Assembly: GCA_036448135.1 (NCBI GenBank)
Contig: JAZFWG010000187.1
Coordinates: 1 to 37,966, forward strand
DNA length: 37,966 nt
Source of the DNA: Alphaproteobacteria bacterium
GTDB taxonomy: Bacteria; Pseudomonadota; Alphaproteobacteria; SMXQ01
Direction: 5' to 3'
Shown here: positions 1,088-37,966 of the stretch, piece by piece
How positions within the stretch are numbered: position 1 is the stretch's first letter
How the letters are laid out: every line of letters begins with the position of its first letter
Notes under the pieces: generated by a model
Database searches by the model: none
Told to the model about the DNA's origin: nothing
What the model saw: only the letters and a program-made list of their open reading frames with translations
Program-made: the position numbers and the translations under genes

Positions 1088-1503
<416 letters not shown>

Positions 1504-11097: not shown

Positions 11098-12218
11098 TGA
11101 CCAGCTTCACCCGCACCGATGTTTCCGTCCTTGGCCGTTGGTGGTGGACAATCGACCGGTGGTCGGTGGCCGCGGTCCTGGCCCTGGTCGGCTTCGGCAT
11201 CGTCTTGACCCTGGCGGCATCGCCGGCGGTGGCGGAACGCATTGGCCTCGATTCGTTTTATTTCGTGCGCCGTCAAATGGGCTATCTGATCCTGGCGCTT
11301 GCCGTCATCTTCGCCACTTCGCTTCTCGGCCCCCGCCAGGTGCGCCGTCTCGGCAGTCTGGTGTTCCTGTGCACCCTCGTCCTTCTGGCGCTGACCATGG
11401 CCATTGGCACCGAGATCAACGGCGCCAAGCGCTGGATCACCCTTGGCAGTCTGTCGATCCAACCGTCGGAACTGGTCAAGCCGAGTTTCGCCATCTTCGC
11501 CGCCTGGATGATTTCGTCCCAGCGTCTTGCCGCGGATTTCCCCGGCTACGTGGTCGCGGTGCTGTTTTACGGCCTTGTCCTGATCCTTCTTGTGGTGCAA
11601 CCCGACATGGGCATGGTCGGCGTGGTCTCGATCGTGTTCTTCACCCAGTTCTTCATCGCCGGGCTACCCCTGATCTGGGTCGGGCTGTTCATGGTGCTGG
11701 GCGCCGGCTGCGGCGTCGCCGCCTATTTCACCTTCCCCCACGTCGCCAGCCGCGTCGATCGCTTTTTCGACCCCGACGCCGGCGACAGCTACCAGGTCGA
11801 TACCGGCCTCGAAGCCTTCATGAATGGAGGCTTGTTCGGCCGCGGCCCCGGCGAGGGCACCTTCAAGGAGGTCCTGCCCGACGCCCACAGCGATTTCATC
11901 TTCGCCGTCGCTGGCGAGGAACTCGGCCTGATCGCGTGCCTGCTGATCGTGTTCCTGTTCGCCTTCGTGGTGCTCAGGGGTTTCACCCGCGTGATCGAGG
12001 AAAACAACCTGTTCATCCTCCTCGCCGTCACCGGTTTGCTGGTCCAGTTCGGCCTGCAGGCGCTCATCCACATGGCTTCCACCCTCAACCTGATGCCGAC
12101 CAAGGGCATGACCCTGCCGCTGATCTCCTATGGCGGTTCGTCGCTGCTGGGGATTTCCCTTGGCATCGGCATGGTGTTGGCGTTGACCCGGCACCGCGCC
12201 GGCGCGGGAGAAGTGTGA
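11097..12218 (+). CDS. ftsW: Peptidoglycan glycosyltransferase / lipid II-associated division protein FtsW (SEDS family), 373 aa
   Basis: The ATG at 11097 overlaps the murD stop (TGATG). An alternative GTG at 11079 gives 379 aa. SEDS motifs PSELVKP, LPDAHSDFIF and GMTLPLISYGGSS. Confidence 0.93.
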   Translation: MTSFTRTDVSVLGRWWWTIDRWSVAAVLALVGFGIVLTLAASPAVAERIGLDSFYFVRRQMGYLILALAVIFATSLLGPRQVRRLGSLVFLCTLVLLALTMAIGTEINGAKRWITLGSLSIQPSELVKPSFAIFAAWMISSQRLAADFPGYVVAVLFYGLVLILLVVQPDMGMVGVVSIVFFTQFFIAGLPLIWVGLFMVLGAGCGVAAYFTFPHVASRVDRFFDPDAGDSYQVDTGLEAFMNGGLFGRGPGEGTFKEVLPDAHSDFIFAVAGEELGLIACLLIVFLFAFVVLRGFTRVIEENNLFILLAVTGLLVQFGLQALIHMASTLNLMPTKGMTLPLISYGGSSLLGISLGIGMVLALTRHRAGAGEV

Positions 12219-13354
12219 TGGCGATGGCGGACCACCGCGCCCTGCCGGGCGATCTCGTGCTGCTGGCCGCCGGCGGCACCGGGGGCCATGTGTTCCCGTC
12301 CCAGGCCCTGGCCGAAGCGTTGCAGGAGCGCGGATACCGCCTGGCCCATGTCACCGACCGGCGCGGCGGCGAATATGGCGATGGCAGCTTTGGCGCCGCC
12401 CATTACCGTATCCGCGCCGGGCGCGTCACCACCGGCGGTGTGGCGGCGCGGCTTTTCGGCGCCGCCGAGCTCATCCTTGGCTTCGCGCAGTCCTACCGGT
12501 TGCTGCGCCGGCTCCGCCCCAGGGTCGTGGTCGGTTTCGGCGGTTATGCCTCGGTGCCGGTGGTCATGGCGGCGGCGCTGCTTAGCGTGCCGGTCGTGGT
12601 TCACGAACAAAACGCGGTGATGGGCCGCGCCAACCGGTTGCTGGCGCCCAGGGCCGACATCATCGCGACCTCCTTTGCCGAAGTCTCAGGCGTCAAGCAA
12701 CGGGACCGCGCCCGCATCCGGGTCACCGGAAATCCGGTGCGCCCCGCGGTGGCAGAGTTGGCGGACCGACCCTTCACGGCGCCCGCCCCCGACGGCCCGG
12801 TTCGCGTCCTGGTGCTGGGGGGCAGTCAAGGCGCCTCGGTGTTCGCCAAGGTGGTGCCCGACGCCGCCGCCCGGACATCGGCGGACCTGAAAGGCCGCCT
12901 CCAACTCAGCCTGCAATGCCGCGCCGAGGATCTGGATGGAGCGCGGCAGGCCTGCGCGCGGCTCGGCGTGACCGGGGAGCTTACGGAATTCTTCGACGAT
13001 GTGCCCGAGCGTCTGGCCCAAGCCCACCTGGTGATCTGCCGCGCCGGCGCCTCCACCACCGCCGAGCTTACCGCCGCCGGCAGGCCTGCGATCCTGGTGC
13101 CCTATCCCAGCGCCATGGACGACCATCAGTCGGCCAATGCCCGCGCCGTTGCCGAGGCCGGGGGCGCCGAGGTCATCGCCGAGCCAGATTTTACCCCCGA
13201 AAAGCTGGCCCAGCGCCTCGACGGGCTGCTCGGCGATGCCGAACGGCTTGGCGTCATGGCGCAAAAAAGCCACCAAGCCGGCCAGGCCAAGGCGGCGACA
13301 CTGCTGGCCGATGTGGTGGTCGAGCTATGCCGCGCCAAGACCGGAGAGGCGTGA
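12218..13354 (+). CDS. murG: UDP-N-acetylglucosamine--N-acetylmuramyl-(pentapeptide) pyrophosphoryl-undecaprenol GlcNAc transferase MurG (canonical copy), 378 aa
   Basis: The ATG overlaps the ftsW stop (TGATG). All GT28 signature motifs are intact: GGTGGHVFP, HEQN, GGSQGA, RAGASTTAEL and DDHQSANA. Confidence 0.95.
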   Translation: MAMADHRALPGDLVLLAAGGTGGHVFPSQALAEALQERGYRLAHVTDRRGGEYGDGSFGAAHYRIRAGRVTTGGVAARLFGAAELILGFAQSYRLLRRLRPRVVVGFGGYASVPVVMAAALLSVPVVVHEQNAVMGRANRLLAPRADIIATSFAEVSGVKQRDRARIRVTGNPVRPAVAELADRPFTAPAPDGPVRVLVLGGSQGASVFAKVVPDAAARTSADLKGRLQLSLQCRAEDLDGARQACARLGVTGELTEFFDDVPERLAQAHLVICRAGASTTAELTAAGRPAILVPYPSAMDDHQSANARAVAEAGGAEVIAEPDFTPEKLAQRLDGLLGDAERLGVMAQKSHQAGQAKAATLLADVVVELCRAKTGEA

Positions 13355-14553
13355 TGGTGGCGCCACACATTTACTCCCAATCCCATCCTGTGATCCTCAT
13401 TGCCGGGGGCATCGGCGCGAAAACCACCCAGCTGTTTACCGCCGAGGCCCTGGCCGGAGAGCTCAGGGCGCGCCACTACACCTTGGCGCTGTTCATCGAC
13501 CGCCTCGGCGGCAACGGCAGGGACCTGGCCGGCGAGCTGCGCGGACTCGACACCCATCCGATCCGCGTCGGCCGGGTCGTCAGCGGCGGCATCATCGGCC
13601 GCGTCCGTGGCTTCGCCGATGTCGCATTTGCGGCTTTTCAAGCCCGCCGGCTGTTGCGCGAACTCCATCCCAGCGTCGTCGTCAGCTTCGGCGGTTACGC
13701 TTCGGTGCCGGCGATGATGGCCGCGTCCAAGCTGCACATCCCGACCATCATCCATGAACATGAAGCCGTGTTCGGACGCGCCAACCGGCTCCTGGCCCCG
13801 GTGGCGAGCGCCATCGCGACATCATTCCCGGTCATCACCGATCTCCAACCCGTCGACCGCGGCAAGGTCACCTTCACCGGCAATCCCGTGGGCAAGACAT
13901 TCCGCGAGGTGCGCCAAATTCCCTATTCGCCGATCACCGCCAACGACCCGATTCATCTCCTGGTGCTGGGCGGGAGCGAAACCACCACCATCTTCGACAA
14001 AGTCGTCCCCCAAGCCCTGAGCAATCTGCCCCAAGGCCTCAGATCCCGGCTCCGGGTCAGCCAGCAAAGCCAGCCCAAAGCCATCCAAAAAATACGCGAC
14101 CTCTACGCCCAGTCCGGCATCCGGGTCGACGCCGCCCCCGCCTTCGACGACCTGTCATCCCGCTTCGGACTGGCGCATTTGGTGATCTGCCGCGCCGACG
14201 CCGTAACATTGGCGGACCTCGCCACCGTTGGCCGTCCCGCGATTTTGGTCCCCGACCCCCACGCCCGAGACGATATCGAGACCATCAATGCCAAGGCGGT
14301 GGATTCCTGCGGCGGTTCCGTGATCATGCCGGAGCCCGGCTTCACCCACGAGTCGCTGACGGCACGGATCAAATTGCTGCTCGACTACGGGCCTGGCCTC
14401 GCCAACATGGCAGGACGCATTCGCGCCGTCGGCCATGACGATGCCGCCGCCAATCTTGCCGATCTGGTGGCGCAGCTGATTCCGGCCAACGGCGACGAGG
14501 CGCCCAATCCCGGCGGTGACGGCAAATCCGAAATACGGGAGAGGGCGGCATGA
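13354..14553 (+). CDS. Divergent MurG-like (GT28-fold) paralog with degenerate substrate-binding motifs, 399 aa
   Basis: The ATG overlaps the murG stop (TGATG) and its own stop overlaps the murC ATG (ATGA). By eye it is collinear with the upstream MurG, sharing [40 protein letters not shown] and GRPAILVP. The signature motifs read [26 protein letters not shown] and DDIETINA. It also has an extra Pro/Gly/acidic C-terminal tail. Confidence 0.8.
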
Positions 14554-37631: not shown

Positions 37632-37739
37632 ATCTGCTACCTTAAATCCGCGCGCATGGAGACTCAAAGACCAAATTCCTTAGCGCGTTGATTCTAGGTT
37701 GTCCTTGACCTTTGTCTCCACTTCGCCCACCATCGATCC

Positions 37740-37860
37740 GTTCCTAGGGGAGCTCTGAGACGAGCTGAGACCCATGTCCGGCGCTGCCAATCTAAACAGA
37801 GCCGGGCGAAGGTGGAAACCCTTGAACCTGATCCGGGTCGTGCCGGCGTAGGGAAGGAGC
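37740..37860 (+). promoter_or_regulatory. TPP (THI-box) riboswitch aptamer; the regulated gene lies beyond the window end
   Basis: GGGGAGCTC..GAGCTGAGA (37747-37770) matches the GGGGUGC...GCUGAGA half. ACCCTTGAACCTGATCCGGGTCGTGCCGGCGTAGGGAA (37818-37855) matches the ACCCUUUGAACCUGAUCUGGAUAAUGCCAGCGUAGGGAA half. P1 can form between GTTCCT (37740-37745) and AGGAGC (37855-37860). Confidence 0.85.
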
Positions 37861-37966
37861 AGCGCGGTTGTCTCCTGATTCCCTACAACGCTATCGGTCC
37901 GGATGCCGCAACCCAGGGTGTGAACCCATAAAGGGTTATGGCGCTGGTTTGCCAGGATTGACCCGG

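Follow-up and report, generated by a model that had tools for sequence, protein, structure and literature searches.

MurG is usually a single-copy, essential enzyme of peptidoglycan synthesis. The stretch of DNA analysed here, positions 1 to 37,966 of contig JAZFWG010000187.1 (the window), carries a complete alphaproteobacterial division and cell wall (dcw) cluster in which an additional MurG-like open reading frame (ORF) of 399 codons lies between murG and murC. The upstream murG is called murG1 and the additional ORF murG2. The latter probably encodes a MurG pseudoenzyme, that is, the resident MurG of the lineage, which appears to have lost its donor and acceptor sites and to have been selected for a non-catalytic role, with murG1 as the gene apparently added upstream.

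MurG2 resembles the canonical MurGs of known structure (1F0K and 1NLM of Escherichia coli, 3S2U of Pseudomonas aeruginosa and 7D1I of Acinetobacter baumannii) in its GT-B fold, its GT28 domains and its murC-adjacent ATGA position, its N-domain is still net positive, and it has a C-terminal tail in common with alphaproteobacterial MurGs. Unlike all of these, it is changed at 21 of 85 near-invariant alignment columns, has a three-residue insertion in its first glycine-rich loop (G-loop 1), scores below the MurG profile cut-off and is preceded directly by a second, intact murG. A second MurG-family protein has been described in Actinobacteria, where the MurG2 of Kitasatospora viridifaciens is encoded outside the dcw cluster, is catalytically active and can replace MurG (mBio 2021; PMC8092295). 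Like the MurG2 of the window, that protein has both GT28 domains and occurs beside a dcw-encoded MurG; going by the description of that family, however, the present protein is set apart by its location inside the dcw cluster, by the loss of catalytic residues and by being apparently the original copy.

Activities other than catalysis, which an inactive copy could retain, are also on record for MurG. The protein oligomerises and binds MurE-MurF in Bordetella pertussis (PMC6420597), forms dimers and hexamers in A. baumannii (PMC8256705) and is found in complexes with MraY, MreB and cell-division proteins in E. coli (PMC2170320). There one protein does both jobs, whereas in the clade of the window they would seem to be divided between two. 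The archaeal MurG-like GT28 proteins of pseudomurein producers are homologues of MurG that also lack the histidine of the GGxGGH motif and a conserved glutamate (PMC8993221; PMC10117817). They are, however, presumed to act on another acceptor, they are the only copy in their cluster and they have a coherent alternative motif, whereas the former active site of MurG2 is variable. The literature, searched for inactive MurGs encoded within a dcw cluster, for MurG pseudoenzymes and for duplicated murG genes, yielded nothing relevant beyond the active actinobacterial MurG2. Non-catalytic partners with a GT-B fold are familiar elsewhere, GtfB acting with GtfA in streptococcal serine-rich-repeat glycosylation and Alg14 recruiting Alg13. 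The concept is similar, in that a catalysis-free partner with a glycosyltransferase fold recruits, stabilises or activates an enzyme, but GtfA/GtfB (GT4-like) and Alg13/14 (split GT28-related) belong to other families and pathways, and binding of MurG2 to MurG1 is hypothetical.

The gene order of the cluster is mraZ, rsmH, ftsL, ftsI, murE, murF, mraY, murD, ftsW, murG1, murG2, murC, murB, ddl, ftsQ, ftsA, ftsZ and lpxC. The extent of murG2 and its overlaps with both neighbours, as described in the original prediction made from this sequence, were confirmed, and the features concerned are as follows.

12218-13354, + strand: murG1, an intact MurG of 378 amino acids without C-terminal tail (TIGR01133 and conserved columns)
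13354-14553, + strand: murG2, a degenerate MurG homologue of 399 amino acids (ORF, Pfam and predicted fold)
13352-13356, + strand: TGATG, where the murG1 stop overlaps the murG2 start (read directly; conserved in contigs L001, L004 and L005)
13343-13349, + strand: GGAGAGG, a Shine-Dalgarno-like sequence 4 nt before the murG2 ATG (read directly)
14550-14553, + strand: ATGA, where the murG2 stop overlaps the murC start (read directly)
13324-13353, + strand: 3' end of murG1 (...CRAKTGEA and stop), resembling the 3' end of ftsW (...HRAGAGEV and stop, 12188-12217)
14482-14550, + strand: C-terminal tail of MurG2, residues 377-399 (23 amino acids), common to the canonical MurGs of related lineages

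GGAGAGG would serve as the ribosome-binding element of murG2. The MurG2 protein is GenBank entry MEE8516224.1, deposited as plain MurG, and is an exact match to sequence P0179; the 378-residue gene call for murG1 is found also on contig L003, which is near-identical to that of the window.

MurG2 is collinear with MurG1, with 43% identity over 371 amino acids (BLASTP, E = 7e-91) and, exactly as had been counted by eye, 35 identities in one block of 51 residues. Both GT28 domains, for which a profile check had been proposed, were matched in MurG2 above their gathering scores (PF03033, 64.1 bits; PF04101, 68.8 bits), at about half the values obtained for MurG1 (104 and 129 bits). Against TIGR01133, the NCBI equivalog model for MurG (EC 2.4.1.227), MurG2 reached 198.4, which is under the cut-off of 250.25, whereas MurG1 passed with 284.5, and no other glycosyltransferase family in Pfam or NCBIfam scored better for MurG2. 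An AlphaFold2 model built from a 93-sequence alignment had a mean predicted local distance difference test score of 88.2 and a predicted template modelling score of 0.86, confidence being lower at both ends of the chain, in two loops of the N-domain and around the G-loop 1 insertion. In a Foldseek comparison of this model with the PDB the six best matches were all MurG (3s2u, 1f0k, 7d1i, 1nlm; E 1e-24 to 5e-23), with template modelling scores of 0.83-0.88 when normalised to the target. The model shows MurG2 as a folded MurG-type protein of the GT28/GT-B kind. It thus has the GT28 domains, the MurG-type GT-B fold and the dcw position upstream of murC that are expected of a MurG, but not the equivalog score, the GGxGGH motif with its histidine, the HEQN loop of the acceptor site, or the GGSQGA loop and alpha/beta/alpha donor motif.

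While the original prediction regarded murG2 as an extra paralogue, the phylogeny, the distance gradients and both junctions point to murG1 as the added copy, and murG2 is probably the resident gene. All five of the sampled relatives (L002 and L006 to L009) have a single murG between ftsW and murC, and the two copies in the window find their matches in one common group of alphaproteobacterial MurGs, at 50-60% identity. Judged by MraY, MurD, FtsW, MurC and MurB, the closest of these relatives are L007 and L006, followed by L002, and the farthest are L008 and L009. The identity of MurG2 (BLASTP, local) tracks this organismal gradient, with 54% to L007, 52% to L006, 50% to L002, 47% to L008 and 44% to L009, whereas that of MurG1 is flat or inverse (57%, 53%, 55%, 60% and 59%, respectively). 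MurG identity was also regressed on neighbour-gene identity in the single-copy genomes, using global pairwise alignments that differ from BLASTP by up to two points. MurG2 fell uniformly 7-12 points under the expectation; MurG1 was below it to close relatives (56% against 62%, L007) and above it to distant ones (58.5% against 54%, L008).

The trees gave a similar picture. In neighbour-joining analysis of 182 sequences, the MurG1 and MurG2 clades were each monophyletic in 200 of 200 bootstraps and were sisters in none of the 200. Maximum likelihood placements were computed under a homogeneous model (a purpose-written fixed-topology evaluator with a Gonnet-derived rate matrix and four gamma categories). 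MurG2 was placed as sister to (L006,(L007,P0010)), with positions outside the home clade at least 40 log-likelihood units worse, and MurG1 at or below the base of the home clade, the position of MurG2 being 17.6 units worse for it. In joint trees, forcing MurG1 and MurG2 to be sisters cost 28.6 units (standard error 12.1; 0.001 by resampling of estimated log-likelihoods).

The two ends of murG2 are informative as well. MurG2 has retained the C-terminal tail, which the original prediction took for an addition of about 25 residues but which is ancestral, since it is present in the canonical MurGs of the closest relatives and absent from MurG1. It has also retained the ancestral GGGAG...GCATGA junction to murC; the murG-murC junction of the window recurs in the single-murG relatives L002, L006, L007 and L009, though not in L008. 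At the other end, the sequence just before the murG2 ATG looks like the old junction between ftsW and murG, and murG1 like a piece added in front of it, because the 3' end of murG1 resembles that of ftsW. MurG1 is MurG-like only as far as '...ELC' and then has an ftsW-like end, and the last 30 nt of the two genes are identical at 18 positions (binomial P ~2e-4, a value to which shared ribosome-binding-site constraints may contribute). This 3' end is a probable fossil of an insertion or duplication junction. Taken with the placements above, there is good support for MurG2 as the resident, vertically inherited orthologue, and MurG1 appears, on balance, to have come from outside the home clade.

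Against an outside origin of MurG1, its five best deep placements lie within 1.5 log-likelihood units of each other, the junction repeat fits a tandem duplication as well as an insertion, the diagnostic columns are few and GC content does not discriminate. The best-surviving alternative is indeed a tandem duplication within the lineage followed by a split, in which MurG1 remained catalytic but gave up the tail, MurG2 preserved the non-catalytic surfaces but not catalysis, and the non-sister tree is an artefact of fast evolution; it concerns the origin only and is compatible with a pseudoenzyme. An ftsW-like end after '...ELC' would be expected from such an event, and each copy stands farther from close relatives than would be predicted (55-56% to L007, where 62% is expected). 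A search of 5.8 billion proteins gave no donor lineage above roughly 60% identity. Nor did ftsW contain a foreign tract in its 3' part, where a left recombination breakpoint was looked for; FtsW is closest to L007 along its whole length. We nevertheless regard a tandem duplication as a serious but less likely origin, given the likelihood and bootstrap cost of the sister topology and the fact that MurG1 is too close to distant lineages and too far from close ones, a pattern that uniform acceleration cannot give. The diagnostic columns also speak against it, albeit weakly: in a 17-taxon set MurG1 has the outside state at five of seven and MurG2 the home state at four of seven, while in the 182-sequence set only one to four columns are usable.

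Several compositional features of the two genes were noted. The GC content is 0.710 in murG1, the highest in the cluster, and 0.652 in murG2. The high value of murG1 was considered as a foreign sign and dropped, as murG is the GC-richest dcw gene also in L002, L007, L008 and L009 and the signal is therefore normal MurG composition; it is murG2, not murG1, that is the copy with shifted composition. Alanine, glycine and arginine together make up 30% of MurG2 compared with 38% of MurG1, a drift from the usual Ala/Gly/Arg-rich MurG type. The isoelectric points of the window's MurG1 and MurG2 are both about 8.9, less basic than the median MurG (9.8). In the MurG2 clade they range from 7.2 to 8.9, with an N-domain charge of about +5, which is below the median basicity of MurG but inside its range and so uninformative. 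With regard to the tail, the last codons of murG2 contain a Shine-Dalgarno-like GGGAG for murC. The C-terminal 'RE-AA', conserved in alphaproteobacterial MurGs and in MurG2 as well (window 14530-14553), is encoded by GGGAG together with the GC(ATGA) at which the gene overlaps the start of murC, and for this reason its conservation is probably a nucleotide-level constraint for translational coupling and not a protein motif. One orthologue, P0184 (402 amino acids), has a tail lengthened by one GDG unit (PGGDGGDG), suggestive of slippage within this Pro/Gly/Asp-rich segment.

The loss of active-site residues was assessed in an alignment comprising 172 canonical MurGs and both clades, MurG1 and MurG2, in which 85 columns are at least 95% conserved; E. 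coli residue numbers follow an HMMER alignment to 1F0K. Each of the five motif changes given in the original prediction is borne out, with one correction, namely that the insertion after the first G-loop comprises three residues and not two (GGIGA-KTT-Q against GGTGG-H). The altered segments of MurG2 are the following.

13405-13431, + strand: G-loop 1, GGIGAKTTQ against GGTGGH, residues 18-26 (identical in 15 of 15 MurG2 sequences)
13753-13764, + strand: HEHE against the HEQN loop, residues 134-137 (Gln127 is H, Q or P in the clade; Asn128 is always Glu)
13879-13893, + strand: GNPVG against GNPVR, residues 176-180 (Arg164 to Gly)
13969-13986, + strand: GGSETT against the GGSQGA donor-diphosphate loop, residues 206-211 (alignment)
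14191-14217, + strand: RADAVTLAD against RAGASTxAE, residues 280-288 (Gly263 to Asp; Glu269 to Asp or Gly)
14269-14292, + strand: DDIETINA against DDHQTANA, residues 306-313 (the Gln288 equivalent is I, L or M; Gln289 to Glu; Asn292 kept)

In G-loop 1, Thr16 is replaced by Ile, Gly18 by Ala and His19 by Gln, with KTT inserted. In the GGSQGA loop the clade has S, G or K at Ser192, E or K at Gln193, T, S or D at Gly194 and T at Ala195. Further invariant residues lost are Pro22 (Thr), Gly102 (Ser) and Phe244 (Ala in MurG2; Ala, Ile or Gln in the clade). In the 1NLM complex of Hu and co-workers (2003), Glu269 reportedly contacts the ribose, Gln288, Gln289 and Asn292 the GlcNAc, and Ser192 and Arg164 the phosphate. 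The GGS loop and an alpha/beta/alpha motif bind the donor, and the HEQN loop accommodates lipid I (PMC8256705). Replacement of the GGxGGH histidine by alanine made MurG activity undetectable and abolished complementation, and replacement of the equivalent histidine inactivated the archaeal homologue Agl24 (PMC8993221).

Mismatches at 21 of the 85 near-invariant columns, found in each MurG2 sequence, answer the objection that the catalytic residues might prove conserved on proper alignment. Clade-wide 23 columns are affected, and MurG1 keeps 83 of the 85. Alphaproteobacterial MurGs have a median of 0 mismatches and no more than 4, the one exception being P0044, which has 13 (363 amino acids, from a 1.4-kb contig, uninspected). 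Ten of 13 key residues are changed in MurG2, compared with three or fewer in each of the 149 other cluster representatives. Tyr106, His125, Glu126, Arg261, Thr266 and Asn292 are kept. Four acidic residues are new in MurG2 (E137, E209, D282 and E309) and, with Arg164 and His19 lost, the diphosphate pocket, which in MurG has to accommodate two diphosphates, is predicted to be electronegative. Ten of the 23 changed positions (43%) still vary within the clade, compared with 28% of ordinary positions; constraint has been relaxed at the former active site but persists over the rest of the protein. It was also observed that residues 1-12 of MurG2 (window 13354-13389) are almost invariant in the 15 sequences, with A3P and I6V as the only differences, whereas the N-termini of canonical MurGs are highly variable. 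This peptide is possibly a clade-specific interaction motif, or else reflects a nucleotide-level constraint at the coupled start.

Two readings of such a protein had been offered at the outset, a non-catalytic MurG-like protein or an active GT28 enzyme with another donor and/or acceptor. The second would make MurG2 a neofunctionalised paralogue acting on lipid I, lipid II or some other lipid-linked intermediate. The intact predicted fold, the purifying selection described below and the residues kept in the cleft are compatible with it, as is the fixation in all 15 MurG2 sequences of nine cleft substitutions (T16I, G18A, H19Q, P22T, N128E, R164G, A195T, G263D and Q289E) together with the N-terminal peptide. 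A precedent exists in the archaeal proteins of pseudomurein producers, for which a different acceptor has been proposed (PMC8993221). However, the positions that would contact the nucleotide sugar (192, 193, 194, 269, 288, 127 and 244) vary among orthologues that are 82-99% identical, both glycine-rich phosphate loops are broken, the diphosphate pocket is predicted to have turned electronegative and no other glycosyltransferase family scores higher. An altered specificity is hence improbable, and the non-catalytic reading is favoured.

It is more improbable still that MurG2 is a working lipid II synthase, a divergent isozyme comparable with the actinobacterial MurG2. In Kitasatospora a distant MurG paralogue, only about 31% identical, is active (bioRxiv 10.1101/2020.10.12.336396; PMC8092295), and MurG2 does have both GT28 domains, but this is contradicted by the joint loss of the GGxGGH histidine, the HEQN asparagine, Arg164, the GGS loop, Glu269 and Gln288/289, by the score under the TIGR01133 cut-off and by the contrast in key residues with every one of the other cluster representatives.

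MurG2 forms a narrow clade. Fifteen distinct sequences were found, all full-length (398-402 amino acids), which make four clusters at 90% identity, one with 11 members, and a single, uncultured cluster at 50%; close orthologues are 82-99% identical. A search with the MurG2-clade profile against 1.84 billion cluster representatives returned one cluster at 887 bits, the next match scoring 309 bits; remoter relatives belonging to the degenerate clade were not recovered. The contigs L001, L003, L004 and L005, which derive from different samples, also have murG2 directly after murG1, with the same overlaps of start and stop codons, and L001 and L003 have the entire ftsW-murG1-murG2-murC order; L004 ends just past murG2, with murC out of view, and L005 holds only the 3' end of murG1.

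There was no frameshift or stop in the 15 distinct sequences, which diverge by up to 18% at the amino acid level. The ratio of nonsynonymous to synonymous substitution rates (dN/dS, by the Nei-Gojobori method, with dS of 0.12-0.51 and therefore not saturated) was 0.22-0.37 for murG2, 0.25-0.34 for murG1, 0.12-0.19 for murC, about 0.18 for ftsW and about 0.18-0.21 for mraY. Neutral evolution of murG2 was rejected, with P from 6e-5 to 8e-19. Within MurG2 the N-domain is the most constrained part (0.17-0.30, compared with 0.27-0.42 for the C-domain), an asymmetry that MurG1 does not have. Gene conversion between murG1 and murG2 was not detected, third-position identity being about 0.5 throughout and the longest shared word 18 nt. 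These substitution patterns show that murG2 is not decaying and that purifying selection keeps the ORF intact, so that the decaying duplicate envisaged as a challenge to the original prediction is hardly credible: although its catalytic motifs are degenerate and its former active-site positions evolve as fast as unconstrained sites, a redundant copy becoming a pseudogene is contradicted by the intact sequences, by a rate equal to that of the active MurG1, by the conservation of both start/stop overlaps and by the confident predicted fold.

MurG2 therefore combines homology and a MurG fold with the loss of required residues and with an intact ORF under purifying selection, the features that characterise a pseudoenzyme. 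That it is not a lipid II synthase and is nevertheless under selection is very probable from the residues lost and the substitution rates. As for how this state may have arisen, an intact murG1 would have been added directly upstream of the resident murG, most likely from outside the home clade, with an older duplication as the alternative. With a second catalytic copy present, catalysis by the resident MurG would have become redundant. Its interaction surfaces, which had evolved together with the lineage's own MraY, FtsW and Mur ligases, would not have been, and for that reason the resident copy would have kept a structural role while losing catalysis. MurG2 may now act as a membrane-associated scaffold or hetero-oligomer partner that links MurG1 to MraY, FtsW and the Mur ligases; mixed MurG1-MurG2 oligomers may bring the enzyme to its partners, and translational coupling would see MurG2 made in fixed proportion with MurG1 and MurC. 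This specific scaffold or heteromer mechanism is put forward tentatively, as a suggestion about as open to doubt as to belief. A stricter version, in which MurG1 and MurG2 form an obligate hetero-oligomer and the resident MurG2 became indispensable, after insertion of a foreign catalytic murG, as the structural component through which the lipid II synthase is connected to MraY, FtsW and the Mur ligases, is doubtful.

Some considerations weigh against a non-catalytic MurG2. The substitutions fixed throughout the clade and the conserved N-terminal peptide could be the mark of a new, selected site and not of mere loss. MurG2 may have residual or altered activity, its inactivity being judged from sequence, and the scaffold or heteromer role is conjectural. 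All of the data also come from metagenomic contigs, and further murG copies may be present elsewhere in these genomes.

The remainder of the window and of the related contigs yielded a few unconnected observations. A bacterial RNase P RNA of class A lies upstream of mraZ and the dcw cluster (window 1093-1502, + strand; 289 bits, full-length model match). Near the right end of the window there is a thiamine pyrophosphate (TPP) riboswitch (37736-37871, + strand; 60.5 bits against a gathering score of 54.3), the gene downstream of which is cut off. In L007 (8594-10437) murB is followed directly by ftsQ, with no ddl, and in L009 (7143-9542) murC is followed directly by ddl, with no murB.

What is probably new here, on the evidence of comparative sequence analysis, is a pseudoenzyme derived from an essential and normally single-copy cell-wall enzyme, in which the original copy is the dead one. 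The members of the clade are few and uncultured, and the role proposed for MurG2 is a deduction. There is also a consequence for annotation, as MEE8516224.1 is labelled an ordinary MurG although most of its key active-site residues are changed. Oligomerisation and pull-down data have been used to argue for a required structural role of MurG in a peptidoglycan-precursor 'synthesome', and such a role is hard to test in an ordinary MurG because catalysis and scaffolding sit in one protein. This clade offers a ready-made separation-of-function pair, in which MurG2 may point to the surfaces that matter apart from catalysis and MurG1 to what a bare catalytic MurG needs. If the two proteins were indeed an obligate hetero-oligomer, the pair would be direct evolutionary evidence for an essential, non-enzymatic scaffolding role of MurG.

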